Source: an uncultured Alphaproteobacteria bacterium
Lineage (GTDB): Bacteria > Pseudomonadota > Alphaproteobacteria > Rs-D84
Reading direction: 5' to 3'
NCBI GenBank assembly: GCA_947367055.1
Contig: CANBCI010000003.1
Coordinates: 92,713 to 156,712 of the forward strand
DNA length: 64,000 bases
The first letter of the stretch is position 1. Each line of letters begins with the position of its first letter. Under the pieces are notes generated by a model. That model was not told where the DNA came from. It saw nothing but the letters and a program-made list of their open reading frames with translations, and searched no databases. The position numbers were made by a program, and so were the translations under genes. Positions 2,706-20,308 of this stretch are shown in pieces.

Positions 2706-3878
2706 TTAATGGCTGCGCACTTCACGCACTTGATAAGTAATTCTCGCTTGATTTTGCTTAAAAGATTTCTTAATTTGCCGGTCTCTGTTTGTGACTCTTA
2801 TATATCCAATCAACGGGACCATTCCCCATGCAATTTCTGAAAAATTTTGTCTTAACCGCTTGCGCCATGCCATTTGCAGTAATTCTTGCTTTATCTGTTC
2901 AATCGGTTTATTGCGTCCAGTTGCATCCTTATACGGCACAATAATATTCCAATCATAATAACTATGCCATTTAACGGTGCCGTCTTCGCGGAAACTTAAT
3001 TCCATGAACTTGTCGTCACCCGCAATACCACCGCATTGTTTTTCTGGATAAAAGATTTTATAACCGATTTTGTTCTGTGCGGCCCGACCGATACGCATGG
3101 TCGGATTTTCTTCATGAATAACCATGCGTTTATTATTGGCATAGAACACCTGGAAAAACGGAAAAAATAAATCACGCGGTTCAAAACGTAACGGTATTCC
3201 GCGTGCCTTGAAATATTCCGGCTGTAAAACGGTATTGTTTGCCATGCAATAATCCAAACGCGATGACATGATACGAATTTTTGTATTATCAAAATGCTCG
3301 TCGGTGGCAACGCGACATATCAGTTCGCGAACCCCGTCCAATGCGGCTTTTGAACGAAACCTATCAACAGATACATCAAGTTTAAGTATTTTTCCGGCAC
3401 GCGCCAGTTTTGTCTGAATTTTCTGCAAATCCGAATATATCTTGTCACGATTTGGTCCAAATACCCATCGGCAATTTGTTTGAATATTATAAACGTCCGA
3501 ATTTCTCAAATTTATCGAATCAAATACACGCAGCATATAACCGGGTGCAACATCATATATCAAAGACCATTCACCACCGGTCATGCAGGTGCCCTTCCAA
3601 TGTTTCATTGAATTTTGATAATATGCAATATCGGATACCGGCAATACCTGCAATGGGTTATTTGGCCCGGAGCACTCAAAGCAGCGTACACAATTTTCAT
3701 CACACCGATTGGTGCAACGGAACCTAATATCTATCGGGACACCGCGCCATGCGTCCATAAAATGCCGACGCGAAAAGGCCGCGATAAACTTATCCCGAAT
3801 AAACGCAAAAATATTTTGCCGGCCTGCCGCATCCGCATCATTATTGCCCGATATTAAAATAACATTATCTTCATCCAT
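2706..3878 (-). CDS. Radical SAM domain protein, function unknown
   Basis: It carries a CDENCVRC (CX3CX2C) motif. I place the start at the MDEDNVIL Met (3878). The longer ORF call to 4046 reads antisense through repeat copy 2. Confidence 0.6.
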   Translation of the reverse strand: MDEDNVILISGNNDADAAGRQNIFAFIRDKFIAAFSRRHFMDAWRGVPIDIRFRCTNRCDENCVRCFECSGPNNPLQVLPVSDIAYYQNSMKHWKGTCMTGGEWSLIYDVAPGYMLRVFDSINLRNSDVYNIQTNCRWVFGPNRDKIYSDLQKIQTKLARAGKILKLDVSVDRFRSKAALDGVRELICRVATDEHFDNTKIRIMSSRLDYCMANNTVLQPEYFKARGIPLRFEPRDLFFPFFQVFYANNKRMVIHEENPTMRIGRAAQNKIGYKIFYPEKQCGGIAGDDKFMELSFREDGTVKWHSYYDWNIIVPYKDATGRNKPIEQIKQELLQMAWRKRLRQNFSEIAWGMVPLIGYIRVTNRDRQIKKSFKQNQARITYQVREVRSH

Positions 3879-3927
3879 ATCAAGGCATATTTTAATACAA
3901 AAAACATTCTTGTCAACAAAAACAATT

Positions 3928-4068
3928 AAATACATCCCACATTTTGAAGACGCCGCCCACCCCGAAACAGATGCCGCGGCACGCGAACAGTTCTTTAATG
4001 ATGACGCATTGCGCGCGGAAATTGATGCAATGTTTGATACCGTCACATGGCGTGGTTAAACACGCGCA
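3928..4068. repeat. Direct repeat copy 2 (orphan nrdG 3' end)
   Basis: It encodes the same 43-aa peptide KYIPHFED...TVTWRG as nrdG but has no upstream nrdG body. Confidence 0.95.
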
Positions 4069-4101: not shown

Positions 4102-4130
4102 TTGACAAAAATAACGACAAGTGCTACCAT
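4102..4130 (+). promoter_or_regulatory. Sigma70-like promoter candidate
   Basis: TTGACA, a 17-nt spacer, then TACCAT. Confidence 0.4.
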
Positions 4131-4154
4131 ATTTATAAATTAAAAAGGTCAAAT

Positions 4155-4397
4155 GTGGATAAAAGATTATTGGTTAACTTATCAAAAGCTGTGGCAATGC
4201 CGCTATTAGTAGCGTCCGTCTTAAGCATTATGGTTCGTTCGTTTATACCGCATAATTTTTTAATTACGGCACCGATGACATCTGTATTTTACATTTACCT
4301 TACAAAAATGCGTCACAACACATCATGGCGCAACGCAATTGATATAGCGGCGGCCGAATTTGATAAATTGTGCGAATATTTATCGCGTCGTCGTTAA
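4155..4397 (+). CDS. Small hypothetical membrane protein (GTG start guessed)
   Basis: The frame is open downstream of the promoter candidate and contains a hydrophobic segment (AMPLLVASVLSIMV). No family was recognised. Confidence 0.3.
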   Translation: MDKRLLVNLSKAVAMPLLVASVLSIMVRSFIPHNFLITAPMTSVFYIYLTKMRHNTSWRNAIDIAAAEFDKLCEYLSRRR

Positions 4398-5546: not shown

Positions 5547-6140
5547 ATGACAAACGACAAATTAAGCCGCAATAAGACCATAAAACTGCCCCGCAAAGTA
5601 CAAAACGAGGGCGGCACTGCAAACACAATTGAAGACCTGTTTTCCGTCCGCCAGGGTTCCGCAACCGGATTTGATGTAAAATTCAACAGCGAAAAGGAAC
5701 GCGCCAAAGCCGACCAAATCGACTGCGAATTGGATCAAATTTCCAAAATATCACCGGAATCAAGCGACCTGCTGGTAATAACGCGAACCAAGAAACTGGG
5801 GGCGTACATTTTTGCAATAACAATCAAGACGCCACAGAAATTTCGAAGCATATACATTCGCCGCCTGCATGATTTGTGCATTGACGCATTGGACTGCATG
5901 TACCACGCAAACGCAATAAAGCAGGATTCACCCGCCAACAAACAGCGCCGCGAACAATATCAGACCGATGCGATTATAAAATTAAAATTACTGGGGTATA
6001 TGGCGTTGCTGGCGGAAAATGCGGCATGCATATTACTGCGCCAGTATAAACAAATTTCCATACTGCTGGGCGACGCGATAAATTTGTGCGCGGCCTGGCG
6101 GAAAAGCGACAATGAAAAATGGGAGGCAAAGAACAAATAA
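5547..6140 (+). CDS. avd: DGR accessory variability determinant (Avd)-like four-helix-bundle protein with a basic N-terminal extension of about 70 aa
   Basis: The C-terminal 125 aa or so have the helical heptad pattern of Avd / 23S-IVS-type four-helix-bundle proteins. The gene lies directly upstream of the TR and RT. Confidence 0.6.
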   Translation: MTNDKLSRNKTIKLPRKVQNEGGTANTIEDLFSVRQGSATGFDVKFNSEKERAKADQIDCELDQISKISPESSDLLVITRTKKLGAYIFAITIKTPQKFRSIYIRRLHDLCIDALDCMYHANAIKQDSPANKQRREQYQTDAIIKLKLLGYMALLAENAACILLRQYKQISILLGDAINLCAAWRKSDNEKWEAKNK

Positions 6141-6204
6141 ACAACACACAGATTTGAAATCCGAAAGGTTTCAAGCAAGGGGGAACTTATATTTACGAGC
6201 CGGC

Positions 6205-6317
6205 TTTCTGGTCGGCCTCGTCCAATGAAAACAGTAATGTTCGTTGCGCCGACAATAATGGCGATAAGAATTGGTATAATCCCAAAAATCGCAAAGTTGC
6301 CGGCCGCCCCGATTTGC
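6205..6317 (+). repeat. DGR template repeat (TR)
   Basis: This non-coding 113-nt segment matches 7871-7983. There are 14 mismatches and 13 fall at TR adenines. It contains AAT/AAC/AAA-rich codon-equivalents. Confidence 0.9.
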
Positions 6318-6570
6318 TCTTGAAGAGAAACGACAAAGTTGTGATTGGCAAAGCCACAATGTTTCTATACAACATGCCAGATATGCGGATTTTACATAAA
6401 ACCCGCCCGCGCACAGAGCAAAGGAAGTTTCCTCTTTTCCAACCGCTGTCGGCGATATGCCCAGTGCGGTGGATAAATAAAAAACGCGTCGCGTTTCAAG
6501 AAACATCACGCATTTTAACGCAACCGCTTTATAGTGCTATTGGGTGTTTCTTTTTTTCAATGGTAACAAA

Positions 6571-7620
6571 ATGACACTGGATGAAATATTCACATTTGAA
6601 AACCTGTTTGACGCGCACACGCAATGCCGCCGCGGTAAACAACACAAACGCGGAACGATAATGACGGAACTGGAACTGGGGCAAATCATAAAAAAATTGG
6701 CATCTGATTTAACGCAGCGAAAATACCGGATCGGGAAATATCGTGAATTTAAAATTTACGACCCCAAGGAACGAATAATACGCGCCCTGCCGTACAAGGA
6801 CAGAATGGTTCAAATGTGCTTTTGCAAAAATGCAATGGCGCCACGATTGGAACGGCGCCTGATTTATGACAATGCGGCGTCGCGTACCGGCCGCGGCCCG
6901 GATTTTGCGACGCGGCGCCTGCATGGGTTTATGCGGTCGTCATTTATCACAAACGGCGGCAACGGTGCGTATTTTCTAAAGTGTGACATATCAAAATATT
7001 TCCCCAGCATAAATCATGATATTTTATTGTCAAAACTGCGCCGGGCCGGATTTTCCCCGGATGAAATGTGGTTTATGGAACAAGTAATCCACTCAACAAA
7101 TGCGCCATGCGGCGTGCCCCTGGGCAACCAGACCAGCCAGTGGTTCGCATTGCTGTATCTGGATGAAATAGACCGCCTGATAAAGGAAAAACTGCGCATT
7201 AAATACTATGTGCGATACATGGATGACTTTGTTTTGATTCATTCGGACAAGGCGTTTTTGCAGCAATGCCGCACGGCAATTGAACGCGCCTGTGCGGAAA
7301 AATTGAAACTGCGCCTTAATTCCAAGACACAGATTGGCCGATTAAAAGACGGGCTGGACTTTCTGGGGTTCAACCATAAACTGACCGATACGGGCCGCGT
7401 TATAAAAAAGGTGCGCGCATCCGCCCGCCTGCGCCAGCGTCGCTATCTTAATACAATCGCAAAGTATTATATGAACGACATTGTGGACGATGAATATTTA
7501 CAGGCGCGATGCGCCGCATTTCGGGCGCATTTGGCGGGAACCGGATCACAAAAATTCATAACAAATGAAATAAACAGCCTGCGTCGTCGCAAGCGATTAC
7601 AGCGCAAATGTGGCAAATAA
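6571..7620 (+). CDS. DGR-type reverse transcriptase
   Basis: It carries the YMDD box (YVRYMDDFVLI) and the DGR-diagnostic LGNQTSQ motif ([ILV]GxxxSQ) in place of the retroviral QGxxxSP. About 350 aa. Confidence 0.9.
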   Translation: MTLDEIFTFENLFDAHTQCRRGKQHKRGTIMTELELGQIIKKLASDLTQRKYRIGKYREFKIYDPKERIIRALPYKDRMVQMCFCKNAMAPRLERRLIYDNAASRTGRGPDFATRRLHGFMRSSFITNGGNGAYFLKCDISKYFPSINHDILLSKLRRAGFSPDEMWFMEQVIHSTNAPCGVPLGNQTSQWFALLYLDEIDRLIKEKLRIKYYVRYMDDFVLIHSDKAFLQQCRTAIERACAEKLKLRLNSKTQIGRLKDGLDFLGFNHKLTDTGRVIKKVRASARLRQRRYLNTIAKYYMNDIVDDEYLQARCAAFRAHLAGTGSQKFITNEINSLRRRKRLQRKCGK

Positions 7621-7632
7621 ATATTTAAAACC

Positions 7633-7661
7633 TTGTAAATTGCATAAAAATAGGGTATAAT
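7633..7661 (+). promoter_or_regulatory. Promoter candidate for the target gene
   Basis: TTGTAA, a 17-nt spacer, then TATAAT, in the RT-target gap. Confidence 0.5.
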
Positions 7662-7676
7662 TTCACATAACAGGGG

Positions 7677-9686
7677 ATGAGAAATAACAGATGCCGGGAT
7701 ACAAGTATTATGGAAACAACATTTCTAACCGAAGATCAAATATGGGGCGATAATGCCCTGCCTGTATTAAAAGAATATGGTGTTGCCGCCGCCCCAACCG
7801 ATTTAGCCGTTATATTAGGCGCAGTACTTGGCGGCAAATCAGTTGACAAAGAAAAACATTTGTCTGGACATTTCTGGTCGGCCTCGTCCGATGAGGGCAG
7901 GCTTGTTCGTTGCGCCGACTATAATGGCGATAGGGATTGGTATTATCCCAAGAATCGCATAGTTGCCGGCCGCCCCGCTTTGCCTAAATCTTCCACATCT
8001 ATAATTCGGTCGAGCGCAGCGAGACCGAATCGCAAAATTGGAAATATTCAAGTAATCGAATACGGCACATATCCACAAACCGCCGCCCCACAAAAAATCG
8101 CTGATGAACTAGAATCCGCCTATAAACGCCACAGTCTGTCCACAACGGGCAATAAATATACGTTTGATACACGTGCCTTGGACGATTATAACAATGGCTT
8201 TTCCGGGGCGGATTATGATGAATATGCGCACAATGGCAAACGATACATCCGCGTCTTGGGAAAACCATACGACGGCGACAGTAAAACCCACGACGGGCGA
8301 CAAATAGAAAAAGACAAGGTTTATTGGGTCGAAGTCCAACCGGTTGAATGGCTGGCCGACAAAAGCGGCGTCTGGGTATCGCGGGAATCGCTGTTTGCGG
8401 GCATTCGTTTCAATCCGCCTGGTGCTTATGACGGCGATTTTTCCAAAACGGAAATGAACCAATACCTGAAAAAATATTTTACACCGCAATTAACGCAAAG
8501 CAACACTTCAATTCACACCGCCACACGTGACGCATCGGCCAAGGAAAAATTTACCCAGGCCGCGAAAAAACTGTCCCATGGCGTCCAGGTAATTGATGAA
8601 CCGATGCCAATCAAAGAACAAATCTCGTTCTATGTAAAAACCGGAAAATCATTTATGCTGCACGGCCCCAGTGGTATCGGTAAAACGGCCCGCGTCGAAG
8701 CAATCGATCCGGATTTGACCGCGGTGCCGTTATGGAACGGCGTTCTGCCCGAAGATATTGTCGGCAAAGTGCGTTACCCGAACGGGAATATTGAATCACT
8801 GATGACGCCGTCGCAAACCGGCGAAGACGCAATTGAAAAACTGAACGGCGGCGGTGTATGGGTGGCGCCGGACTGGTATAATGAACTGACGCGCAAATGC
8901 GCGGCCGAACCGGACAAAACGCACGTCCTGTTTATCGACGAGGTGACCAACGCCAAACCGACAACGCAGTCTCTGATATTCCATATCGTTTTGAAAAAAT
9001 CAATCAGTCCGTCAAAGGGCAAACTGCCTGCAAACGCGGTTGTTGTTCTGGCCGGAAATGACAAAAGCGAATCCGGCGCGGCATACAATATGCCCGCGCC
9101 CCTATTCCGACGCATGTCGGGGCATATCCGTCTGGAATACAATCTGCCGGAATGGTTGGAATGGGCGTCTGAAAAAAGCCGCAAGCATCCCAAAGACCCG
9201 GCCCGCCTGAATGCACACCCGTTGATTGCACAATTCCTGGCGGCCAACCCCCAGGCGTTCTATTCAAATTATAACGAAGAAAACCCCGAACAATGGGCGA
9301 TTGACCCGCGCGGCTGGGAACAAATATCTGACATCATATACGACAACGGCAATACAATCCGGCGTGAACTTATTGAAAACAAAATCGGCCGGGAAAATGC
9401 CGCCGCATTAATGGCCTTTGCGCGCGAACCGATGATTACACTTGACGATGTGGTAAACGGGACATACAACACGGACGACATTCCGCAAAATGCCGACATG
9501 CGCCTGGCGACCACATTGAACTTGCGTTATGCCAACACGCGCCAGGTGAAAATCGTCCGCCAATTCATCCAGCAACACTTGGGGGCGGAAAACTTGGCGA
9601 TATTTGATTCCCTGTGGGTGGGCGATGACCCCGAACGCGCGATTCAAATCACACAAATGCAAAGTTTTATAAAAGAGGGGCGATAA
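7677..9686 (+). CDS. DGR variable protein: N-terminal ligand-binding-like region containing the VR, fused to a MoxR/AAA_5-like ATPase
   Basis: The VR covers aa 65-103. Walker A is GPSGIGKT, Walker B is VLFIDEV, and PLFRRM looks like an Arg-finger region. An alternative start is 7710 (METTF). Confidence 0.85.
   Translation: MRNNRCRDTSIMETTFLTEDQIWGDNALPVLKEYGVAAAPTDLAVILGAVLGGKSVDKEKHLSGHFWSASSDEGRLVRCADYNGDRDWYYPKNRIVAGRPALPKSSTSIIRSSAARPNRKIGNIQVIEYGTYPQTAAPQKIADELESAYKRHSLSTTGNKYTFDTRALDDYNNGFSGADYDEYAHNGKRYIRVLGKPYDGDSKTHDGRQIEKDKVYWVEVQPVEWLADKSGVWVSRESLFAGIRFNPPGAYDGDFSKTEMNQYLKKYFTPQLTQSNTSIHTATRDASAKEKFTQAAKKLSHGVQVIDEPMPIKEQISFYVKTGKSFMLHGPSGIGKTARVEAIDPDLTAVPLWNGVLPEDIVGKVRYPNGNIESLMTPSQTGEDAIEKLNGGGVWVAPDWYNELTRKCAAEPDKTHVLFIDEVTNAKPTTQSLIFHIVLKKSISPSKGKLPANAVVVLAGNDKSESGAAYNMPAPLFRRMSGHIRLEYNLPEWLEWASEKSRKHPKDPARLNAHPLIAQFLAANPQAFYSNYNEENPEQWAIDPRGWEQISDIIYDNGNTIRRELIENKIGRENAAALMAFAREPMITLDDVVNGTYNTDDIPQNADMRLATTLNLRYANTRQVKIVRQFIQQHLGAENLAIFDSLWVGDDPERAIQITQMQSFIKEGR
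7871..7983 (+). repeat. DGR variable repeat (VR)
   Basis: It lies in frame inside 7677-9686 (FWSASSDEGRLVRCADYNGDRDWYYPKNRIVAGRPAL). It ends just after an all-G/C 13-mer, GCCGGCCGCCCCG, followed by CTTTGC. Confidence 0.9.
8004..8030 (+). other. Stem-loop downstream of the VR
   Basis: ATTCGGTC / GACCGAAT forms an 8-bp stem with an 11-nt loop, starting 20 nt after the VR end. It is absent downstream of the TR. Confidence 0.5.
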
Positions 9687-9689
9687 AAC

Positions 9690-10040
9690 ATGACACCTGC
9701 ACAAAACGCAAAACTAACCCAGGTTTTACAGTCAAACGCGACATGGCCGCTGATTATTGTGGGCATGATGGCGGCACGGGCCCCGAATGCAACCGTTATA
9801 CCTGCGACAATTGCCGAACGCGACCTGCATAACGACACAATTCTAATAAAACCCTACATTGTGATTGACGGACTGGACAACATATCCGCCGACGCACAGC
9901 GCAAGTTTGTTCCCCTGCTAAAAGACCGGCGAACCGGAATGCATAAACTGCCGGCGGATGTGCGTATCATTGTCCCGGTGCGTTCGGCCGACAAACTGTC
10001 AAAACAAATAAAAGACCTGGCATTGATATATAATGTTTGA
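9690..10040 (+). CDS. Small protein resembling a Walker-A-less AAA+ core fragment
   Basis: IVIDGLDNISADAQRKFVPLLKDRRTGMHKLPADVRIIVPV resembles the MoxR Walker B to sensor-1 stretch. It is translationally coupled on both sides. Confidence 0.5.
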   Translation: MTPAQNAKLTQVLQSNATWPLIIVGMMAARAPNATVIPATIAERDLHNDTILIKPYIVIDGLDNISADAQRKFVPLLKDRRTGMHKLPADVRIIVPVRSADKLSKQIKDLALIYNV

Positions 10041-11463
10041 CCAACTCAAAGAATATATTTTCAAAGCGTCCGAAGAAAAACTGCGCCAGCAGGAAGAAAT
10101 AGAATACGTGCGCGATCGCGTGTTGGCGAAATTCCCGTTGCTGGGGACAACCATGGCGCGATTGAAAACCGCTCCCGCAAAGGTCATTGATGACGAAACA
10201 ATTGACACCGCCGCAACGGACGGACGAACAGTTTTTTATAATCCGGACTGGTTTATGCCCCTGTCCGACGATGAAAAGGTGTTTGTCTATGCGCACGAGG
10301 TGATGCACGTCGCATTCAACCATATTTTGCGCAGTGGCAACCGCAATCACAAGATATGGAACCAAGCCACCGACGCCGTCATAAATCAAATATTAAAATC
10401 CGAAAGCCTGCCGATGCCGGAAAACGGTGTGGATATAGCCGATGCAATCCAACATTCCGCCGAAGAGATGTATGAAAAATTGTTGCGGGAAAATAAAAAC
10501 AACAAAAACGACAAAAACGAACAGGCCGGCCACGACAACCACAATATTTGGAAAAAGGCACTAGAACGCGCTGAAAAAGAAAAACAGAAACAGAAAAATA
10601 ATAATGGCGCCAGTGGCGACGAAAAAAACGAAAAACAACAAAACCAGGATCAGGGTGGCACCCAAAATCAGGCGCAAAAAAATCAGTCGGAAACGGACAA
10701 AAAAAATTCACCAAACGACAGTGAAAGTGAAAAAAACTTTCCCCAGGAAAATCAGCGCACCCGGGCGCAGCGCGCCGCCCAGGCCCAGCGCGCCTTAAGC
10801 GCCGCAAAAAATCATGCCATGAACCAGGCCGCCCGGGATTCCGTCCAAAATTTCGGTCCGGTCGGCGAATCCGACGCCGTTGTTGATTGGCGCCGGGTGC
10901 TAAAAAAATCACTTGAAGAAGAGCATGACAAATGGTCGTACCGCCGCAGCGACGAAGATAATGATTTTATGGCGCGCGTTGAAGAACTGGACGACGAAGA
11001 ACGTGCCGACACCGAAGTCATGCTGGACACCAGCGGTTCGGTCAGTGAAAGTTTTCTGCGTGAATTCCTGCGTCAATTGAAACCGCTGCTAAAAAACGGC
11101 AACCTGCACGCGGGATGTTTTGATGAACTCTTTTACGGCTTAAATGACATCAAAACCAATGACGACATTGACAACTTTAAAATTATCAGTCAAACCGGCG
11201 GAACACGATTGGATGTGCCGGTCAAATCATTTTCAAAAAAACCAGATATAAATAAAATAATTTTTACCGACGGATATTGCAGTCCACATGCAATGCCTGA
11301 TGCCAGCACACGAAATATAAAAAATTTGATATGGCTGGTCTATGGCAATCGTGATTTTCACCCGATTTGCGGCCGCGTGATACAGATTGACCCCACCACA
11401 ATCCACAACAACTTTACAATGGTGCCACACGCGGCGATTATTGACCCAAGCCATCACCGGTAA
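10033..11463 (+). CDS. DUF2201-type putative metallopeptidase plus VWA-like domain protein
   Basis: It has an HExxH motif (YAHEVMHVAFNH) in the N-terminal half and a MIDAS-like motif (MLDTSGSVS) in the C-terminal half. A K/N/Q/E low-complexity linker joins them. Confidence 0.8.
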   Translation: MFDQLKEYIFKASEEKLRQQEEIEYVRDRVLAKFPLLGTTMARLKTAPAKVIDDETIDTAATDGRTVFYNPDWFMPLSDDEKVFVYAHEVMHVAFNHILRSGNRNHKIWNQATDAVINQILKSESLPMPENGVDIADAIQHSAEEMYEKLLRENKNNKNDKNEQAGHDNHNIWKKALERAEKEKQKQKNNNGASGDEKNEKQQNQDQGGTQNQAQKNQSETDKKNSPNDSESEKNFPQENQRTRAQRAAQAQRALSAAKNHAMNQAARDSVQNFGPVGESDAVVDWRRVLKKSLEEEHDKWSYRRSDEDNDFMARVEELDDEERADTEVMLDTSGSVSESFLREFLRQLKPLLKNGNLHAGCFDELFYGLNDIKTNDDIDNFKIISQTGGTRLDVPVKSFSKKPDINKIIFTDGYCSPHAMPDASTRNIKNLIWLVYGNRDFHPICGRVIQIDPTTIHNNFTMVPHAAIIDPSHHR

Positions 11464-11886: not shown

Positions 11887-11976
11887 TTGCTTTTTATCGT
11901 GTTTTGTGGTATAGTAAAAGTGTACTAATTTTAGTCGGCATTGTGCCGACTTTTTTATTTTTCAAAAGGATTTACA

Positions 11977-12981
11977 ATGGCATTAAAAGAATACACCACA
12001 ATGACAACCAAAGATTGGTTGCGGGTCGCCAGCACCGCATACAAGGCATATGTAAAAACAAGAACAGGAAACAATCAAGGCACATCAGATGACGAAGAAA
12101 AATGCGATGGCATAATTCAGGTTGGCGGCTATACCCGTTCCGATGGCGCAAAAGTTGGTGCATATGAAAGAATTTGCCCATATCATTATCAAGGCGGGAA
12201 ACGTCCAAATGAAGAAAACAAAGAGAAAAAATTTTCTTTAACCACAGGAATTTCTTCAAGTAGTAATGCCAACAGCAATGATGTTATAAAACTGAAAACA
12301 TACTTAAACAAAATGAATTATTACAAACCGGAACCGCGCAGTGAAACAGAAGACAAGTTTCACGGGTATCCGAATGACGCCTTGGTGGATGCGATTAAAA
12401 ACTTTCAAAAAGATAATGGATTGATTGCGACCGGTAAAATATTTCCAGGCGACGCGACTGAATCTGCAATAAACAGTAAATTTGAATCGCACGGCGTGAC
12501 ATTTGAATATCCAGTGAATACAAACAAGAATCAAATCGCAATATTTGATGGCAAATCACTGACATTGTATGAAAATGATAAAAAAATAAAATCATGGGAC
12601 GGAATGTCTGGAAAGCCTGATTATCAAGGCAAAGAAAACCAAGGTTTAAAAAATAAAGGCCCATTACCAGAAGGTACATACGTTGCAAGGCAGTCAAAGA
12701 TACAAAATATAGATCTAAAAAATGCTGCTTTGGGTTCGGCAAGCGCTATCGGCATAAAAGCCGGCGGATGGCCAGGTTCTTATTATTCATGGGGCAAGCA
12801 CAGGGTTTGGCTGGAAGCATCACAAGAAACAAACACATACAATCGAAACAAATTTAGCATACATGGCGGTTGGCGCCCAGGTTCTGCAGGCTGTATTGAT
12901 TTGACCGATGGGATAAATACTTTTATTAAAGAATTAGAAAGTACTGGCAAAGACTTGGTTATTAAAGTAAAATACGAATAA
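11977..12981 (+). CDS. Tlde1/DUF2778-like L,D-transpeptidase-fold toxin with a peptidoglycan-binding domain
   Basis: The PG_binding_1-like segment is DALVDAIKNFQKDNGLIATGKI. The C-terminus has GPLPEGTY and HGGWRPGSAGCID (an H...SxGC catalytic motif). Confidence 0.65.
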   Translation: MALKEYTTMTTKDWLRVASTAYKAYVKTRTGNNQGTSDDEEKCDGIIQVGGYTRSDGAKVGAYERICPYHYQGGKRPNEENKEKKFSLTTGISSSSNANSNDVIKLKTYLNKMNYYKPEPRSETEDKFHGYPNDALVDAIKNFQKDNGLIATGKIFPGDATESAINSKFESHGVTFEYPVNTNKNQIAIFDGKSLTLYENDKKIKSWDGMSGKPDYQGKENQGLKNKGPLPEGTYVARQSKIQNIDLKNAALGSASAIGIKAGGWPGSYYSWGKHRVWLEASQETNTYNRNKFSIHGGWRPGSAGCIDLTDGINTFIKELESTGKDLVIKVKYE

Positions 12982-13346
12982 TGAAACGATGGCAAAAGAT
13001 AATTTTCGGCATATTCTTAGCAATACATGCGTTGATTATGTATGCATGCGTTTATGATTATTATGATGCAATTATCAAAAATTGCGCGGGCTGGGGCCCG
13101 GGCTTTGACTGTCCTTGGGGCAGTGAGGCCATGGGGGTTGCGTGGACAGATCCATATGTATACATCTCCATGCTAAGCAGGGATTTTATGATGTCTATTG
13201 TATTTGTTATGTTCTCAATTCTCGCAGTACATAAAAAGAACTATACAATTGCAATCTGGTTCTTAGCATTACCGTTATTGGTAGGTTTTTGTGCTCATAT
13301 TGCAGAGATACCGCTGTCAGCATCGATTATGTTTACACAGACATAA
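12981..13346 (+). CDS. Multi-pass membrane protein, candidate cognate immunity protein
   Basis: TAATG start/stop overlap with the toxin gene. It has 3-4 hydrophobic helices. Confidence 0.5.
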   Translation: MKRWQKIIFGIFLAIHALIMYACVYDYYDAIIKNCAGWGPGFDCPWGSEAMGVAWTDPYVYISMLSRDFMMSIVFVMFSILAVHKKNYTIAIWFLALPLLVGFCAHIAEIPLSASIMFTQT

Positions 13347-14101
13347 ATTGTCTTATAAATGGTAAAAACAGGTATCGGCATGAAAAAATATGTTCATATT
13401 ATATTGGCATGTGTTGCGGCGATTGCATTTTGTGCTTTTATGATATTTTTTTTGGGATTTGGCTCTTTTTAACCGAGTCGGCAAGATGTGTAGCATCTGG
13501 GAAAATATATTTTACGAATATGGCAGAAGCGAAAACCGTATGGCTGTATTGATGGCTGATATGGATATTTTGGGTGTTTTTGGCTCTTTACTGATATTCG
13601 AAATTCCAATGTTGGAACTGTTTATGCGATATAAATATTGGATAATGTTAATACCTGTTATTGGCTTCATCTTATTTTTGTTTATTGCGCCAATAACTTT
13701 ATGTCCGGTGTAATACGGATGATATTAGAACACATGTTGTTTTAGGCTTTCCACTGCCAAGGCGAAAAAGGCCAATGTATAGAAAGTGGTTTTTATTTGC
13801 CAATTTTTGAAATTTCGCGATATACCGCGGATGAGTTATAAATAAAAAGCCCCGATTGCCCGGGGCCTTGCGCGTTATATGTTTGTATATTTAAAATATA
13901 ACTGATTCCTGGCGGAGGTAGATAATTATACGGTCTATTGCACACAACAACAGGGAATTTAATTCAAAATCTATCTTTTCTATTGATTTTTTAGCCAATT
14001 TTTGATATAATCTTCGTTAAGATAAGCAGGCGATTTTGTCGCCGTTTTTTATTGCTCTGCCCGATGTCGGCGGGGCTTTTTTATTACCCAAAGGAATAAC
14101 C

Positions 14102-14752
14102 ATGAAAAAGTCACACATTGTCATTTCCGACATAACATGCATGAAAGAAAAGTTCTGCATTGCCGGTTTTGACACGTATGAAAAGCGTATGAAACGTCTA
14201 ATGATTGACGGTGGATATTGGGATGCGAATCAAATTCCGGCCACATATTGCGAAATACTTGTTGATAACGAAGAATTCAAGGAGCCACGTGATTACCCAC
14301 ACCGAACCGAAGATGTAAATATAGATTTTGATTCAATTGAAGTTTTGCAAGAATTTGAACCAGGAAAAGATCTGGCAAATGCTTTGCGCGATAGCGTTTC
14401 AAAAGATATCCAGGGCATATTCCATCATCAGGTCAAAGAAGATACCTATGTGCCACAGAAAACCAAATGCCCTTCGTTGGGCGCCATATTGATTCCGGCA
14501 CACAATATTGAATTCTTTACAGAAGACGGCAAATTACGCGCCCGTATTACAGACTATTCCAAACAAACATATGAATTAAAGGTCAGTTGCAAATACCTGC
14601 GTGATATATTCGAAAAAGACAAAGATGTCACAGGTTTGAACAATGCTGTTGCCGCCAGCCAGTATGCCCACTGTCGCATAGGATTGGCACGAAAGTTTCT
14701 TATGCGGGAAAATCATTGCTATTTGATGTTAAACGGGCTATTTTTGTATTGA
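14102..14752 (+). CDS. Hypothetical protein (216 aa)
   Basis: An AAAGGA SD is present. The stop lies 1 nt from the DUF488 start. No family was recognised with confidence. Confidence 0.6.
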   Translation: MKKSHIVISDITCMKEKFCIAGFDTYEKRMKRLMIDGGYWDANQIPATYCEILVDNEEFKEPRDYPHRTEDVNIDFDSIEVLQEFEPGKDLANALRDSVSKDIQGIFHHQVKEDTYVPQKTKCPSLGAILIPAHNIEFFTEDGKLRARITDYSKQTYELKVSCKYLRDIFEKDKDVTGLNNAVAASQYAHCRIGLARKFLMRENHCYLMLNGLFLY

Positions 14753-14753
14753 T

Positions 14754-15179
14754 ATGACAAAGATTTTTACGATTGGTTTTAGTGGTAAAAGTCCTGACGC
14801 GTTTCTGGATGTGCTAAACGCGGTGCGTGTGCGTGCTGTTTGGGACATACGCCTGTGGCGAACAAGCATATACGTGCCATTCTACAGTGGCGACAGTTTG
14901 GCGGGTGTGCTGGGGAAGCGGTACGAATATCACCCAGAATTCGCCCCAAGCACCGAAATCCTTGCCGGTTACAAAGATGGCCGCATAACCTGGCCTGATT
15001 ATGAGCGTATGTACCATGAATTGCTGACCACACGCCATCCGACCGCAGGAATGACACCGGACGCGCTTGACCGCATTTGCCTGCTATGCACTGAAAAATC
15101 CGCCACACAATGCCACCGACGCATTGCTACCGAATACATTGCAGCACAATTTTCTGATATTGAAATTGTGGATTTATAA
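14754..15179 (+). CDS. DUF488-family protein
   Basis: The signature reads IFTIGFSGKS...VWDIRLWRTS...LLCTEKSATQCHRRIATEYI. Confidence 0.8.
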   Translation: MTKIFTIGFSGKSPDAFLDVLNAVRVRAVWDIRLWRTSIYVPFYSGDSLAGVLGKRYEYHPEFAPSTEILAGYKDGRITWPDYERMYHELLTTRHPTAGMTPDALDRICLLCTEKSATQCHRRIATEYIAAQFSDIEIVDL

Positions 15180-16613
15180 TTATCCCCCAAAATCTAGTGT
15201 ACAAGAGCTACTAAAAATCGTTAATGTCTTGCATGCCCTGCTTATTGCTACATAAAAATTCTTACAATCCATTGTTTGTGCATCTAAAACAATCACGTTA
15301 TCAAATTCTAAACCCTTTGTAAGAAGCGTAGAACCAATACACTTACTATGTAAGCTTCGACCTGCTTGGCGTATTTTGTTCTTATATGCATACATTGAAT
15401 CACATATAGACATATCAGATATAGCAGCATCTTTCACTGCTTTTATTATGGCGTTCAATAGTTCCGGGCGCTGATATTTTAATTTAAGTTCATCTTTCAT
15501 GAATTTGACGATATAATGTAACGATTGTTTATCTATGCAATTGTTTTGCAATTTTTCGATGTGGGATTTTAGCAAATTGCATTTTTCTATATCCGATTGA
15601 CTCCTTTTACATTTTAATCCTGTTGCATTAAACCAGTTAGCAATATCTGTTTTATTAAATATGAATGATTCGCAAATTTCTTTAAATAAAGAAAATTGTC
15701 TTTCAGATGTGCAGAGATCATCTAATTTGGCCGATATATTATAAAAATCTCTATCATCAATTGATTCAATTAATTGAAACCGCTGCAACCCCAAAGAATT
15801 ACGTAATTTTTGTCTCTGTTTTATTTGCCTATTATCTATTATCAGTATATTATCATAGGTATTAGCTAGTCTCAAAAGGCTTCTTTTATACAAAGTATCC
15901 TCATAAACACCACCAGATGTTCGTATAAAAGTTATGCCAGGCCTATCTACCGACAAATCTATAATGCTATCTACTTCAATATGTCGTCTAATTTCTTTTA
16001 TGGACTCCCCTAATTCAAGATTGTTGCTATTTGTACTCCTCCACCGCCATGGTATTTCCAACGTTCCTGCCTCATCTGAAAAATCACATAAACACTCATT
16101 AAATTCAACCAGTTGTTCTCTAAATTCAAAAATACCTTGCAGAGGATCGCCTAGTACATGCATTGGAATAAAATCTTTCAGTTTCATTAGCATATTATGC
16201 TGTTTTAACGTACAATCCTGATATTCATCAATAAATATACCTGTATATGTTTTTTTGATTATTCCAATTATTGGTCTCTTTGAAAATAATTCCGTCGCTT
16301 TTTCAATAATAATATCATGAAATCCAACTGCCTTTTGTTCTGGAACTTGATTTGCCATAAATCCTAGAACATATTTTTGAGCATAACCGCATATTGTTTC
16401 AACATTATATGCGGATGGTCGAACTCCTTGTTTTAATAGTTTTGACTTTATTGAAGCCACACCTGCGTGAGTATGCGTTAAAATAAGCTGTTTCCCCTTA
16501 TTGCGTTCATACGTATACTTGATACACTCTGCAATAAATTGCGTTTTTCCATAACCCGCCGGCGCAATCACTTTTGTCTTTAAACCACTTATAAACGTCT
16601 CTATATCTACCAT
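15180..16613 (-). CDS. gajB: UvrD-like superfamily 1 helicase (Gabija GajB-like)
   Basis: It has the APAGYGKT Walker A, FIDEYQD motif II and LTKGLEFDNVIVLD / YVAISRA C-terminal motifs. The start abuts the gajA-like stop. Confidence 0.8.
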   Translation of the reverse strand: MVDIETFISGLKTKVIAPAGYGKTQFIAECIKYTYERNKGKQLILTHTHAGVASIKSKLLKQGVRPSAYNVETICGYAQKYVLGFMANQVPEQKAVGFHDIIIEKATELFSKRPIIGIIKKTYTGIFIDEYQDCTLKQHNMLMKLKDFIPMHVLGDPLQGIFEFREQLVEFNECLCDFSDEAGTLEIPWRWRSTNSNNLELGESIKEIRRHIEVDSIIDLSVDRPGITFIRTSGGVYEDTLYKRSLLRLANTYDNILIIDNRQIKQRQKLRNSLGLQRFQLIESIDDRDFYNISAKLDDLCTSERQFSLFKEICESFIFNKTDIANWFNATGLKCKRSQSDIEKCNLLKSHIEKLQNNCIDKQSLHYIVKFMKDELKLKYQRPELLNAIIKAVKDAAISDMSICDSMYAYKNKIRQAGRSLHSKCIGSTLLTKGLEFDNVIVLDAQTMDCKNFYVAISRACKTLTIFSSSCTLDFGG

Positions 16614-18251
16614 TTATGCGTCAATCCATTCTGATAACGCGTTCCAAACTCTTTTCATATGACAGTCAGAAACCGCCCCCCAATTCGCGAATATAGTATT
16701 TCCCAACGTTTCAGCCTTATCAATTCTTTTGTACCATTCTCTATCTTTGTTAATTGACAATTTTGCAATTCTAATTCTATCTCTCTCAATATCAACTACA
16801 TTTCCCAAGGAAGAAGTATCTTCTTTTGAAATTATGCCTTCTATTACATCCCAAGGCAAATCTTTAAAAATTTGATGTTCTATATCATTACCGTCTTCAG
16901 AATCAAAAACCTGTATCCCATTGTCCCTCAATGCTTGTTTCTGTCCATTTACATCGGCTCTATCAGAATCTAAAAAAACACACACATCAAAGCCTAAGTC
17001 CTTTATTTTCTTAGCTCTATCAATTGCGCTACTTCCTTCTCCTACAATATAAAAACAATCTTTAGATGCCATTGACGGTAAATTTTGTTTTACACGCCAA
17101 GAATCCATAGCTCTGCATATTCCTATTTCTGTTTTTCCTTCACAAACAATGATTTTATTACAAAAAAATCCTTCAGGGTTTGCTCTAACAATGGCCTGCC
17201 AATTATCTTTTGAAGGAATATTTTTAATATACACATTTTCTTTGTCATCGAACTTTTTTACTAAATATAAATCATTTGAATTAAGTTCTACAATTGCATC
17301 TCGCGAATGAGTAGTCAGAAAAATCTGCCCCTTGTTTTCATTTTTTAACGATGATACTATTTGTCTAATTCTATCAGGTTCCAAACCTTGCTCTATTTCA
17401 TCTATCAACACAATTCCACCACGTTTTGCCAGAGCTAATTGTATCGCCATAGAAATTATACGTTTTGAGCCCTTACCCATTAAACGCAATGGGATATTAT
17501 TATCGTTATTTAAACATACCTTGTTATCTTTGATAACAATATCCTTAAAATCAATTGATGTTTTCATTGCACCAATATTTAATCCCAATATACCTACATA
17601 TTTTGTTACTTCATTTATTGCACTTTCTGTTTGTGGAAACCCCGCGCTATCTATATTTATTTTTACTTCACGCAGCCTATCAATAATTATATTACGCTCA
17701 TCTGTTTCTGACGAAAAATTCTTCAACAATTGATAAAGAGGCGACCCCTTACTCCAAGAAAAATGCTTATCAACATAGTCAGATATAAAAGAACAGTTTA
17801 ATTTTGATCTGTCTGTTGCGGATATCGCTTTGGGCTCCTGACGCCCAGTCACCATTTCCCATTTTGGTTCCAATGTTTTATCCACAGTTAATCTAATAGT
17901 ATATACATCTTCCAACTCCGGGTTATCTATTACTTCATCTGTAATTTCACCCGTACTTTTATTATATTGTCTTTTGTATAAACCAAATTTATCTTCTGTT
18001 TGCAATATATCCGGAATATTTGCTAATGTAGCCTCTATTTTTATTGGTTGAGTAACATCTGCATTAAAGAAGTCTGTATCATAAAATTGCAAAATATGGC
18101 TGGGGTATAAAACATAATAAATAGAATCCAAAATTGTTGTTTTTCCGCTATCTCCTCTACCAATTAAGCAAATAAAATTTTTATCAAACGTTTCTGAAAG
18201 ACATTTGATTCCACGAAAATTTTCTATATCCAACTTTAATATATTACTCAA
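16614..18251 (-). CDS. gajA: OLD-family ATPase plus Toprim nuclease (Gabija GajA-like)
   Basis: The N-terminus has GRGDSGKTT, followed by VLIDEIEQGLEP. The C-terminal Toprim has IIVCEGKTE and FLDSDR. Confidence 0.8.
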   Translation of the reverse strand: MSNILKLDIENFRGIKCLSETFDKNFICLIGRGDSGKTTILDSIYYVLYPSHILQFYDTDFFNADVTQPIKIEATLANIPDILQTEDKFGLYKRQYNKSTGEITDEVIDNPELEDVYTIRLTVDKTLEPKWEMVTGRQEPKAISATDRSKLNCSFISDYVDKHFSWSKGSPLYQLLKNFSSETDERNIIIDRLREVKINIDSAGFPQTESAINEVTKYVGILGLNIGAMKTSIDFKDIVIKDNKVCLNNDNNIPLRLMGKGSKRIISMAIQLALAKRGGIVLIDEIEQGLEPDRIRQIVSSLKNENKGQIFLTTHSRDAIVELNSNDLYLVKKFDDKENVYIKNIPSKDNWQAIVRANPEGFFCNKIIVCEGKTEIGICRAMDSWRVKQNLPSMASKDCFYIVGEGSSAIDRAKKIKDLGFDVCVFLDSDRADVNGQKQALRDNGIQVFDSEDGNDIEHQIFKDLPWDVIEGIISKEDTSSLGNVVDIERDRIRIAKLSINKDREWYKRIDKAETLGNTIFANWGAVSDCHMKRVWNALSEWIDA

Positions 18252-18370
18252 GCTGTTACCTCTATTAAATTACTAATAATTTTACAAAGACAATATATAG
18301 AATTCAAGCACATTAATTTTAAGTAGATTACATTATTTACATAGCAGCAAAATCCCCATAAACAATCAAC

Positions 18371-18399
18371 TTGATTTACTTTATTTATCACGGTACACT
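18371..18399 (+). promoter_or_regulatory. Promoter candidate for leader RNA copy 1
   Basis: TTGATT, a 17-nt spacer, then TACACT. Confidence 0.45.
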
Positions 18400-18405
18400 T
18401 TTCTC

Positions 18406-18588
18406 TTGAACCCAATGGGAATTGGGTTCGGGGCTGTGGTGGCCCGCAGACGCGGCATTTGTCGTTAAAATCCCCCGACTTTGGTCGGGGAGCCGTTCGC
18501 TATAAAACAGGGCTTGCCCGAAGGCTGCGGAGCATTCGTTTGCTGACACCAACTCCCCGGCCGTCAATTCCGTTGACGGTCTTTGATT
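18406..18588 (+). ncRNA. Structured leader RNA, family copy 1 (unassigned)
   Basis: It has a 9-bp P1 hairpin at 18408-18429, conserved blocks shared with 63757-63995 and 26860-27065, and an intrinsic terminator at 18561-18588. Confidence 0.6.
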
Positions 18589-18608
18589 TATAAACAAGGG
18601 GAATTTCT

Positions 18609-18839
18609 ATGATTATTACTACAGATTTAGATCTCTCAGTAACTTTATTCGTTGTATGCATTACCGTGATTATAGGTGGCGTGATTAAGCGTGCAACAGC
18701 AAATAGTAAAGCCAAAGCCTATGCTGAATATGTAGAAGAATGCAAAAAGTCCAAAAAGGAACCACTGGATTATGTTTCGTGGGAACGATTGGAAGCCGCC
18801 GCCCCACGATCATATGCAGACGATGACGATTGGGAATAA
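18609..18839 (+). CDS. Small single-pass membrane protein with an acidic tail
   Basis: A GGGGAA SD is present. It has one TM helix (VTLFVVCITVIIGGVI) and a DDDDWE C-terminus. Confidence 0.5.
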   Translation: MIITTDLDLSVTLFVVCITVIIGGVIKRATANSKAKAYAEYVEECKKSKKEPLDYVSWERLEAAAPRSYADDDDWE

Positions 18840-18841
18840 AT

Positions 18842-19525
18842 ATGAATATTACAGAATCCGTTATTTCTGCATTTATGAATCTGAAACAAAAGCATCGGTT
18901 CTTTGTATCCGAGGCGGATTTTCAAGCATCTTTTACATGGGAACTGGCGCAAGTATTTCATGACCGACCAGATGTTAAAATATACCGTGAATTTCCTGTG
19001 CGCGTATATGACACCCAGTGGCGTACAATTTATATCGACATTTTGATTGTTGCCGATGGTCAAAGGTTTCCCATTGAGTTAAAATACAAAACCAACACAA
19101 TAGACTCTGACGAATTATATGAAGACACTGGCATCCCGATCAGAGACATATTAAAACCACAAGGTGCCAAAGACGAAGGCAGTTATGACTGTTGGAAAGA
19201 CATATCACGCATAGAGAAATTAGTTAATATCGGTTTTGCCCACAGTGGTATCTTTATATGCATTGCAAACGACAAATATTATTGGAACGGCAATTGCGGC
19301 GAAAGTACTCTTGGCTACGCATTTCGTATGAACTCGGGTCATAAATACGGTGGTGAATATAACTGGAATTTGGCAAATTGTGCAAACATAGAAAAGTTGC
19401 TAAAAGCGCGTCCAAATTTACATATCATGAATGACTATGAATTTGCCTGGCAGGACTTCTACGAGATGCGGGCACAAAATGGTTTGTTTAAGTTTTTATT
19501 AATCAAAATCCCATCAACGGAGTAG
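18842..19525 (+). CDS. PD-(D/E)xK nuclease-fold candidate
   Basis: YIDILIVADGQRFPIELKYK fits the D...ExK motif. Confidence 0.55.
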   Translation: MNITESVISAFMNLKQKHRFFVSEADFQASFTWELAQVFHDRPDVKIYREFPVRVYDTQWRTIYIDILIVADGQRFPIELKYKTNTIDSDELYEDTGIPIRDILKPQGAKDEGSYDCWKDISRIEKLVNIGFAHSGIFICIANDKYYWNGNCGESTLGYAFRMNSGHKYGGEYNWNLANCANIEKLLKARPNLHIMNDYEFAWQDFYEMRAQNGLFKFLLIKIPSTE

Positions 19526-19530
19526 CAAAA

Positions 19531-19827
19531 ATGACGAAAATATCGTTTATTATATTAGGCTTATTAAGTTTAACGGCATGTGCTACGGAAACAAGAGCTG
19601 TAGAAGTTTAGCACATAGATCCAGAATGGGAAATCTATAGTATTACATACAATGTAAAGCTGATCTTGAACAATTGTCAATATGACGACGACTGGGCCGA
19701 TGAGCAGAGTTACATCTGGTCTGGAAACTTTGAAAACACACATAAATCATTCTCGTTTACAACAGCCATGGGGGGGCAAAGGACTGTCCCTGTGTATTCT
19801 GGTGTTTGTTCAGTAAAAAAATTCTAA
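19531..19827 (+). pseudogene. Small lipoprotein gene interrupted by one in-frame TAG
   Basis: It has a signal peptide and lipobox (ILGLLSLTAC). The TAG is at 19609-19611, and the frame stays open for 71 more codons. Confidence 0.45.
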
Positions 19828-19890
19828 AAAGAACGCTGTTTGTCCTGGGAAAAAGATTGCGTTATTGAACAAAAAGATGATCGATATTCA

Positions 19891-19914
19891 AAAACGCCCC
19901 CAAAGGGGCGTTTT
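19891..19914 (+). terminator. Intrinsic terminator
   Basis: AAAACGCCCC-CAAA-GGGGCGTTTT. Confidence 0.6.
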
Positions 19915-20015
19915 ATTCATTGTTGCATCGCATAGTTTATGCACTAGGTTAATGCATCAACCTGGTCTTTGTATTTGCTGTTTGGAAATCCCAACAGCTC
20001 TTTCTTGAAATCTGA

Positions 20016-20260
20016 CTACCATGGTGCTTCCTTTTGTGGGAATTTCAATGTGCTGTTTTCTATCAAAGCGCTACACCCTATCAGACGCGAATACAGCGTA
20101 GAGCCATACCATTCGTTTAACTTGGCATGTTGGGATTCTGATGACGCATCCACAGATTTTTGCGGATCGTCTATTATAATCCAGTCCGCCCCACGCCCAG
20201 TCAACGTTCCACCGATATATGTAGCCATACGCCCGCCACTGTGGACGCAATGAGGCACAT
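20016..20260 (-). pseudogene. Phage terminase large-subunit fragment
   Basis: GGTLTGRGADWIIIDDPQK...LNEWYGSTLYSRL resembles the Walker-B region of terminase/GTA-type large subunits. Only about 80 aa remain. Confidence 0.5.
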
Positions 20261-20308
20261 AAACATTCAAAACGCACCATACGCAGAAAAAAAATCTTTG
20301 TTCAATCA

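Follow-up and report, generated by a model that had tools for sequence, protein, structure and literature searches.

Whether a bacterium can use reverse transcription to keep rewriting what an intracellular ATPase binds is the question raised by a locus in a 64,000-nt stretch of DNA from an uncultured alphaproteobacterium (GenBank assembly GCA_947367055.1, contig CANBCI010000003.1, positions 92,713 to 156,712 of the forward strand). The whole stretch is called the window here, and positions are counted from its first nucleotide. A preliminary description, made from the sequence, had read two repeats in the window as the template repeat (TR) and the variable repeat (VR) of a diversity-generating retroelement (DGR). 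Both repeats were found to belong to a cassette on the plus strand, arranged in the order Avd-like accessory gene, TR, structured spacer, DGR-type reverse transcriptase (RT) and target gene, with the VR lying in the last of these. We consider it highly probable that a bacterial chromosome here carries a DGR that is complete and still functional, and that its variable domain sits on the ATPase of a putative ATPase/VWA-protease machine, for which it may select ligands.

Adenine-specific differences between TR and VR

Recomputed alignment of TR (6205-6317) and VR (7871-7983) ran without gaps over 113 nt and contained 14 mismatches, 13 of them at TR adenines, of which the TR holds 31. These counts agree with the preliminary description, which had also proposed a permutation-type check of adenine bias; the corresponding hypergeometric (Fisher) test gave P = 6.3e-8 for an adenine count of 13 or more among the 14 mismatches. 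The sole non-adenine mismatch was a T>G change (TR 6235, VR 7901), no mismatch fell on a C or G of the TR, and none had an A on the VR side. The same pair was recovered by a separate repeat search (family D4, 88% identity), and its similarity broke off sharply at both ends. The search of the window for further remote VRs yielded none, leaving a single VR.

In the frame of the target gene the TR adenines occupy positions 1 and 2 of AAY codons, and codon reading showed that the amino-acid changes listed in the preliminary description were correct. Thirty adenines in 16 codons correspond to 4^30 (~1.2e18) DNA variants and ~1.7e16 peptide variants. The template had also been described as free of stops, which did not hold: the TR design is not wholly stop-proof, because its AAG codon and its two AAA lysine codons can mutate to stop codons.

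Natural variation of the VR

A second full-length member of the target's 90%-identity cluster (P0122) is encoded on a metagenomic contig (ENA ERZ14235896 NODE_2752, locus L050). Over 5,952 nt this locus is identical to the window save for 23 positions, all of which lie within the VR (7890-7960). Twenty-two of them coincide with TR adenines, and the 23rd is position 7901, where L050 has the template T; the T-versus-G difference noted in the preliminary description therefore exists in the window and is private to the window VR. The TRs of the two loci are identical while their VRs differ, and the TR/VR differences of L050 itself fall at adenines in 20 of 20 cases. Variants at the template adenines were what the preliminary description had suggested looking for in natural populations, and L050 supplied them with an unchanged TR. 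Since L050 and the window differ in the VR only, and there almost solely at template-adenine positions, we are all but certain that the element has been active in nature. Such a pattern is expected if mutagenic retrohoming strikes repeatedly within a background that is clonal otherwise.

Variation concentrated in the VR was likewise seen in five other 90%-identity protein clusters; in cluster 3, with four full-length variants, 15 of the 18 variable columns lay in the VR. Over 74 homologs of the target the entropy peak coincided with the AAY-templated residues, and V66, G73, R83 and R88-P89 (658-aa numbering) were conserved.

Related loci were collected by scans, which gave 49 genome loci and 72 metagenome loci for a target family of >200 homologs. 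The genome loci came mostly from metagenome-assembled genomes of uncultured gut or rumen Alphaproteobacteria, and some from Clostridia. The avd and RT genes preceded the target in 13 genome loci and in several metagenome loci. TR/VR pairs with the same spacing could be detected in 15 distinct loci (11 genome loci and four further metagenome loci), and by our own tally 249 of their 268 pooled mismatches were at A.

Several related loci departed from this arrangement. In L009 (6001-7950), L023 and L026 a diversified VR-like segment is followed by a perfect initiation-of-mutagenic-homing site (IMH) and the hairpin described below, and avd, TR and RT were not found in the upstream flank (6 kb in L009 and L023, ~2.2 kb in L026), which suggests a cassette acting in trans from elsewhere in the genome or a very recent loss. 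In L097 (112-5498) an RT is flanked by two target genes that combine the variable N-terminal domain with the AAA ATPase, and in L062 (2551-5289) several copies of this domain surround an RT; both resemble multi-target forms of this DGR lineage. In L005 (12031-12435) the TR 3′-end motif, C[CT]GATTTGC[TC][TC]TT, was matched a second time, ~7.5 kb 3′ of the main TR, and no second RT or avd was detected near it by tblastn.

The IMH and the hairpin downstream of the VR

Both repeats contain a G/C-rich 13-mer, which the preliminary description had called IMH-like and which was found as described; it is followed by GCTTTGC in the VR and by GATTTGC in the TR. The resulting difference between A6312 (TR) and C7978 (VR), a D>A change at codon 101, occurs in both natural VR alleles and in all related loci, and the two heptamers were common to all loci examined. 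In all 15 loci with a detectable pair the TR ends in …CCCGATTTGC-TYTTGAAG and the VR in …CCCGCTTTGCC. Because C7978 is shared by both natural alleles and all related loci, A6312/C7978 is, as far as these sequences tell, a fixed difference between the IMH and its TR counterpart (IMH*) and no product of mutagenesis. The last of the 13 adenine substitutions formerly counted as VR changes is thus to be reassigned to the homing site.

Going inwards, the hairpin 3′ of the VR has an outer stem of 8 bp, a tandem G·A/A·G, an inner stem of 2 bp and a triloop; its distance from the IMH is fixed in related loci. Across 28 distinct sequences its seven Watson-Crick pairs were 79.6% paired, compared with 24-41% in slid controls. 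Two-sided changes were observed at 7/7 pairs, with a covariation score that was reached by 0/500 shuffles, and in loci L054 and L068 the G·A positions were swapped for Watson-Crick pairs. The compensatory changes alter the encoded amino acids, and selection therefore acts on the nucleic-acid structure itself. The case for the hairpin is comparative; it was also predicted in the fold of the window, and a 101-nt segment downstream of the VR was no more stable than shuffled sequences in a single-sequence DNA fold (z = -0.06). More distant relatives that have no DGR also have no hairpin.

Accessory gene, spacer RNA and reverse transcriptase

The interpretation of the repeats as TR and VR was borne out by the DGR-type RT between them, by the Avd-type gene upstream and by the second allele differing only in the VR. 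Residues 71-194 of the accessory open reading frame (ORF) matched the PHROG profile phrog_3206, 'Avd protein of DGR' (E=1.4e-13), and the gene is kept at 47-62% identity 5′ of the TR in DGR-bearing relatives; its product is probably of the Avd type. Comparison with orf29 of Faecalibacterium phage Lelie by hhalign was not significant.

The non-coding spacer between TR and RT is conserved, with 71% mean column identity in an alignment of 13 loci. RNAalifold predicted 76 pairs, 27 of them with compensatory changes (covariation term -7.84 kcal/mol), and the single-sequence fold gave z = -2.5. In the predicted structure the 3′ end of the TR (6309-6320) pairs with 6415-6424, leaving G6311 and A6312 unpaired; this helix, whose window coordinates were mapped by hand from the alignment (A5), covaries at one position. 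It is followed by several hairpins and, just 5′ of the RT start codon, by a stem and a U-run. By analogy with the DGR RNA of Bordetella phage BPP-1, the region of the TR 3′-end helix probably organises cDNA priming. An Rfam scan of the window returned tRNAs only.

The RT translation contains GVPLGNQTSQ and RYMDDF, so that the [IL]GxxxSQ and YMDD motifs are intact, and it is 38% identical (E=2e-59) to the DGR RT of phage Lelie. Judged by these motifs and by its profile matches, the enzyme is a DGR-type RT with an intact catalytic core.

The target protein and its variable domain

The target comprises an N-terminal variable domain (7710-8501; hereafter N-domain), a low-confidence linker, and a MoxR-like AAA+ ATPase with a helical C-terminal region (~8610-9686). 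Its ATPase part gave weak Pfam matches (AAA_5, AAA_16 and AAA_3) and a PHROG ATPase match at 1.4e-37. A full-length AlphaFold2 model had a mean predicted local distance difference test score (pLDDT) of 81.7, with block means mostly >90 in the N-domain (lowest 74) and a disordered linker. In the Protein Data Bank (PDB) the ATPase part was matched best by two MoxR ATPases, CbbQ and NorQ (E~6e-8), the latter also in complex with its VWA partner NorD. Walker A residues G322, G324 and K325, Walker B residues D410 and E411 and sensor N450 were invariant in 74 homologs, and R467 and R468 were at least 90% conserved, which is consistent with a catalytically intact ATPase of the MoxR type.

The N-domain (residues 1-264) was also modelled alone, because a Foldseek search with the full-length model had returned AAA+ matches only. 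The resulting model was confident (pLDDT 96.2, predicted TM-score 0.93) and showed the VR region as a beta-hairpin and loop. No PDB sequence matched the N-domain by phmmer or profile search, and Pfam searches with N-terminal pieces of 107, 297 and 210 aa gave nothing meaningful at E <=10. A profile search of 1.84 billion representative proteins recovered 2,639 relatives as representative clusters, 853 of them at E <=1e-30. The best matches were mostly standalone proteins of 265-450 aa; some relatives had tandem copies of the domain, and some were fused to other modules, such as ankyrin repeats and DUF4116.

Some distant relatives of the N-domain passed the gathering score of DUF6273 (cutoff 23.5 bits) over the part equivalent to the VR (P0199 with 31.4 bits, P0189 with 26.3 bits), and hhalign paired the VR segment FWSASS…AGRPAL of the window with the VR segment WWLRSP…GVRPAF in the DUF6273 target of phage Lelie (E=0.015, 3% probability). 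These matches suggest that the N-domain is a divergent relative of the DUF6273/C-lectin-like scaffold. A C-type-lectin fold was not confirmed, the confident model having no Foldseek match, and a new fold is not claimed in view of the remote links to DUF6273. The target begins with an acidic N-terminus (METTFLTEDQIWGDNALPVLKEYG…) that lacks a hydrophobic leader.

Standalone N-domain proteins of 265-440 aa, whose tails are basic or coiled-coil and which lack an ATPase, were also noted among the related loci (L054, 4501-5811; L060, 4501-5409; L058, L061 and L088). Those of L054 and L060 have a DGR cassette of their own with an adenine-biased TR/VR pair. To judge by the names of the metagenome records, some of these loci may not be from gut samples.

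Partner genes and chromosomal setting

Two genes follow the target in the same operon (Table 1). The small ORF had no match in Pfam, NCBIfam, PADLOC or PHROG, and most related loci, with or without a DGR, have it at the same place and with 30-47% sequence identity. The DUF2201 gene likewise lies 3′ of the ATPase gene in most related loci; its product matched Pfam DUF2201_N (5.9e-32) and the DUF2201 VWA-like domain (7e-7, above cutoff). Phage homologues exist for both the ATPase (phrog_1297) and the DUF2201 protein (phrog_1314). The latter profile, the best PHROG match of the DUF2201 protein (E=3.7e-63), is labelled 'HNH endonuclease'; this is probably an annotation error, given the Pfam metallopeptidase and VWA-like matches and the HExxH motif.

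The window is chromosomal, as shown by lgt, a class II aminoacyl-tRNA synthetase gene, mdh and four tRNAs, and the host is probably an uncultured gut alphaproteobacterium. No relatives of the target were found in IMG/VR, and blastn against phage genomes matched ~120-140 nt within the RT gene only. We rejected a prophage tail or receptor-binding module on these two grounds. The locus has a G+C content near that of the genome (0.44-0.50) and adjoins a low-GC island at 12-22 kb (0.34-0.39, against ~0.49), which extends over 12000-22154 and ends at a tRNA-Ser gene (22065-22154, minus strand). Defence genes, namely Gabija and a PADLOC candidate defence protein, lie in this island 3-7 kb 3′ of the locus.

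Table 1. Features of the DGR locus and its surroundings in the window
Feature	Position	Strand	Remarks
Avd-like accessory gene	5547-6140	+	197 aa; Avd-like helical part at residues ~71-194; basic N-terminal extension of ~70 aa
TR	6205-6317	+	mutagenic part ~6224-6294 with 30 adenines; putative IMH* 6295-6317 (GTTGCCGGCCGCCCCGATTTGC), discriminating A at 6312
DGR RNA spacer	6318-6570	+	253 nt, non-coding; conserved and structured, from TR to RT start
DGR reverse transcriptase	6571-7620	+	349 aa; RVT_1 5e-17; phrog_1423 3.9e-98; PADLOC generic RT 1e-32
Promoter-like site	7633-7661	+	TTGTAA-17-TATAAT; between RT stop and target start; 10/12 consensus matches in a consensus scan, weak
Target gene	7677-9686	+	669 aa (ATG 7677) or 658 aa (ATG 7710, public gene calls); VR near N-terminus
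VR	7871-7983	+	codes for residues 66-102 of the 669-aa protein; natural variation 7890-7960; putative IMH 7961-7983 (…GCCGGCCGCCCCGCTTTGC)
Hairpin	8004-8030	+	21 nt 3′ of VR; ATTCGGTC-GA-GC-GCA-GC-GA-GACCGAAT; inside coding sequence
Small ORF	9690-10040	+	116 aa; between ATPase and DUF2201 genes
DUF2201 protein	10033-11463	+	476 aa; N-terminal putative zinc metallopeptidase (HEVMH), low-complexity linker, C-terminal VWA-like domain
PG_binding+Tlde1/YkuD protein	11941-12981		low-GC island
DuOB protein	14036-14752		low-GC island; DuOB/DUF488 pair matches PADLOC candidate PDC-M45
DUF488 protein	14754-15179		low-GC island; PADLOC candidate PDC-M45C
gajB (Gabija)	15180-16613		low-GC island; E=1e-114
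gajA-like AAA_15/AAA_21 protein	16614-18251		low-GC island

Three further repeat structures were observed in the window. A direct repeat of 141 nt with 96% identity (2562-2702 and 3928-4068) duplicates the 3′ end of an nrdG-like activase gene (1989-2693), and its copies flank ~1.2 kb in which the only ORF, of 446 aa on the minus strand (2706-4046), had no Pfam, PADLOC or PHROG match; the intervening segment resembles an insertion by which the gene's 3′ end was restored. Repeats of ~223-446 nt (families D1, D3, D5 and D11) occupy 51681-52768, where Tandem Repeats Finder reported a period of 223 with 2.1 copies and 89% match; the surrounding ~2.2 kb contain no ORF >128 aa and no Rfam match. Identical 39-nt copies at 61750-61788 and 61919-61957, the first of which starts in the last bases of a tRNA-Asp gene, end in a hairpin and a T-run (…CCGCAGTTATACTGCGGTTTTTT) and look like a duplicated terminator module.

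Comparison with known systems

The locus resembles the canonical DGRs of Bordetella phage BPP-1 (Mtd, bAvd and Brt), Legionella and Treponema in several respects. Its TR, rich in AAY codons, differs from the VR through adenine-specific substitutions; the TR has an Avd-type gene immediately 5′ and an RT 3′ of it and is followed by structured RNA; and the VR closes with a G/C-rich IMH, beyond which lies a stem-loop. It differs from them in that the target gene lies 3′ of the RT and the VR is N-terminal, so that the IMH and the hairpin fall inside the coding sequence. In addition, just one fixed base separates the IMH from IMH*, tandem G·A pairs and a triloop are features of the hairpin, and the target is predicted to be cytoplasmic and carries an ATPase. 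C-terminal VRs are the conserved organisation of DGR targets (Roux et al., PMC8144416), and N-terminal diversification was recorded in only 3 of 372 DGRs (Wu et al., PMC5758913).

The same order of accessory gene, TR, RT and target with the VR in its N-terminal part is found in the DUF6273 DGRs of gut phages, i.e. those of the tentaclins (PMC10743442) and of Faecalibacterium phages such as Lelie (PMC11792537). In Lelie an accessory gene is followed by the TR (4122-4248), the RT and a target with the VR (6151-6277) in its N-terminal half. The VR peptides align in the pattern W-[WS]-x-[RA]-S … V … G … [GV]-R-P-A, the RTs are related as described above, and the published VR models, a beta-hairpin with flanking loops, agree with the secondary structure predicted here. 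Unlike these elements, the present DGR is chromosomal, lying among housekeeping genes and tRNAs and having no IMG/VR relative; its target has neither a DUF6273 match nor Ig or Fn3 domains, and the C-terminal partner of the variable domain is a MoxR AAA+ ATPase, not a virion-anchoring module.

DGRs have also been described in vWA-MoxR ternary conflict systems (VMAP) of cyanobacteria and gammaproteobacteria (Kaur et al. 2020, PMC7159879; Doré et al. 2024, PMC10907252), and DGR-diversified sensors in MoxR/vWA conflict systems were proposed in the same papers. There, as here, the genes of a DGR, a MoxR-type ATPase and a vWA protein with a peptidase are linked in the genome, and the variable domain is proposed to be an intracellular sensor. 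The VMAP systems have the VR in an FGE/C-lectin domain at the C-terminus, either of the vWA protein or of a separate protein, whereas here it is N-terminal and on the ATPase itself. The vWA partner here is a putative DUF2201 zinc metallopeptidase, with no trypsin, caspase or TIR effectors, and the bacteria that carry the locus, gut Alphaproteobacteria and some Clostridia, are not multicellular. A third VMAP component was not recognised; the third conserved gene is the small ORF, and as no VMAP profile was used, the absence of such a component is not proven. NorQ/NorD and CbbQ/CbbO, in turn, provide the best structural matches of the ATPase part and likewise pair an ATPase with a VWA partner, but their ATPases have no N-terminal ligand-binding domain, they have no DGR and no peptidase on the VWA partner, and their clients are defined enzymes.

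Literature searches returned no description of a hypervariable domain fused to a MoxR ATPase itself, nothing for DGR with DUF2201, and only vWA-fused C-lectin systems for DGR with MoxR. The mechanism of the DGR is ordinary; what is unusual is the architecture and context of its target, with an N-terminal VR, a poorly classified scaffold fused to a MoxR ATPase, a DUF2201 partner, and an IMH and hairpin in coding sequence.

Proposed mechanism and alternative explanations

Following the BPP-1 paradigm, the unit of avd, TR, spacer and RT would be transcribed, and the RT together with the Avd-like protein would copy the TR part of the structured RNA into cDNA, misincorporating at template adenines. 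In the target gene the VR would then give way to this cDNA. The G/C-rich IMH, which differs from IMH* by one fixed base, C for A, would determine directionality as well as the 3′ boundary, and recognition of the target would probably be helped by the conserved hairpin. The predicted outcome is an N-domain of 264 residues in which 16 codons are hypervariable.

That the element is a decayed DGR, in which the TR/VR pair records past mutagenesis, would fit the presence of one VR in the window, the non-adenine change at 7901 and the occurrence of targets with no adjacent cassette (L009, L012, L015 and L023). It is nevertheless very unlikely, since the RT motifs are intact, the TR, spacer RNA, IMH and hairpin appear to be under purifying and compensatory selection, and L050 differs from the window in nothing but the VR, which therefore must have been rewritten while its flanks gained no substitutions. 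Recombination or gene conversion among paralogous alleles, or a chimeric assembly of mixed strains, might also produce divergent VRs, given that metagenome assemblies can collapse strains and that the family has many diverged alleles. Such processes would not place 13 of 14, 20 of 20 and, over 15 loci, 249 of 268 differences at template adenines, nor would they leave the TR unchanged and end precisely at the IMH, and the window holds no second VR-like copy that could have served as donor; we regard this origin as next to impossible.

AAA+ motors are cytoplasmic. A role of the variable domain as the cytoplasmic selector of ligands or substrates for the ATPase/VWA-protease machine is proposed because the target has no leader and its ATPase needs cytoplasmic ATP. 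The DGR would then continually re-tune what this machine binds, with proteins of phages and mobile elements as the likeliest ligands. Display of the N-domain outside the cell for adhesion would be in keeping with the signal peptides or transmembrane segments and the extracellular ligands of most cellular DGR targets (PMC8144416), and with the existence of standalone N-domain proteins. The acidic, leaderless N-terminus, the covalent fusion to an AAA+ ATPase and the lack of secretion genes in the operon make it highly improbable here.

A harder choice concerns what the cytoplasmic machine does. The DGR may be real and its target system nevertheless a housekeeping MoxR/VWA chaperone or maturation factor of the NorQ/NorD or CbbQ/CbbO kind, or a domesticated phage module, with the variable domain tuning the binding of self or environmental ligands. 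The closest structures, NorQ and CbbQ, are indeed maturation or activase chaperones with VWA partners, phage homologues of both proteins exist, PADLOC gave no match, the G+C content is near genomic, unlike that of the adjacent defence island, and many relatives have no DGR. A housekeeping client, however, would not need ~1e16-fold variability, hypervariable binding surfaces are characteristic of arms-race interfaces (PMC10907252, PMC7159879), and no client operon such as nor or cbb adjoins the locus. A housekeeping-chaperone role is a serious rival, which we hold to be possible, if rather unlikely. That the ATPase/DUF2201 module senses invaders is itself put forward tentatively, with chances below even. 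Bolder is the notion of an anticipatory intracellular receptor, in which a hypervariable lectin-like domain on a MoxR motor with its VWA-metallopeptidase would capture foreign proteins, of phages or plasmids, for an unfoldase/protease machine whose choice the DGR keeps changing, and would provide gut Alphaproteobacteria with a protein-level, antibody-like immunity; this we offer as a speculation that is more apt to fail than to hold.

Several observations weigh against an active DGR that diversifies an intracellular sensor. Activity was deduced from two assembled variants and from variants within protein clusters. The accessory ORF scored below the 80-bit cutoff of NCBIfam DivGenRetAVD (20.5 bits, E=4.6e-4) and had no match in Pfam or in a profile search of PDB sequences, so that its assignment to the Avd type comes from one PHROG profile. 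The model of the N-domain found no Foldseek match in the PDB or BFVD (best E ~0.1, TM-score <0.2), neither the N-domain of the window nor any of its 24 aligned relatives matched DUF6273 in Pfam even at E <=1-10, where only noise appeared, and the link to that family is indirect, running through three intermediate sequences. Many relatives of the ATPase-DUF2201 module have no adjacent DGR, and the module therefore works without diversification. Finally, the target, the small ORF and the DUF2201 protein had no PADLOC match, and the low-GC island with the defence genes nearby is separate from the locus, so that a role in conflict would rest on weak guilt by association.

Implications

To our knowledge, DGRs are the only natural system of targeted protein hypermutation in prokaryotes, and little is known about what cellular DGR targets, those outside phages, do. 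The locus supplies a defined one-base discriminator between IMH and IMH*, and its compact natural arrangement of an N-terminal VR with IMH and hairpin in coding sequence should be useful for DGR-based mutagenesis of internal gene segments. It also brings to light a large unannotated family of variable-domain scaffolds, for which Pfam has no dedicated model and no structural relative could be detected. A diversified module on an AAA+ motor with a protease/VWA partner suggests a machine whose choice of substrate is rewritten by reverse transcription, and the locus offers a concrete system for asking whether bacteria use DGRs in intracellular recognition.

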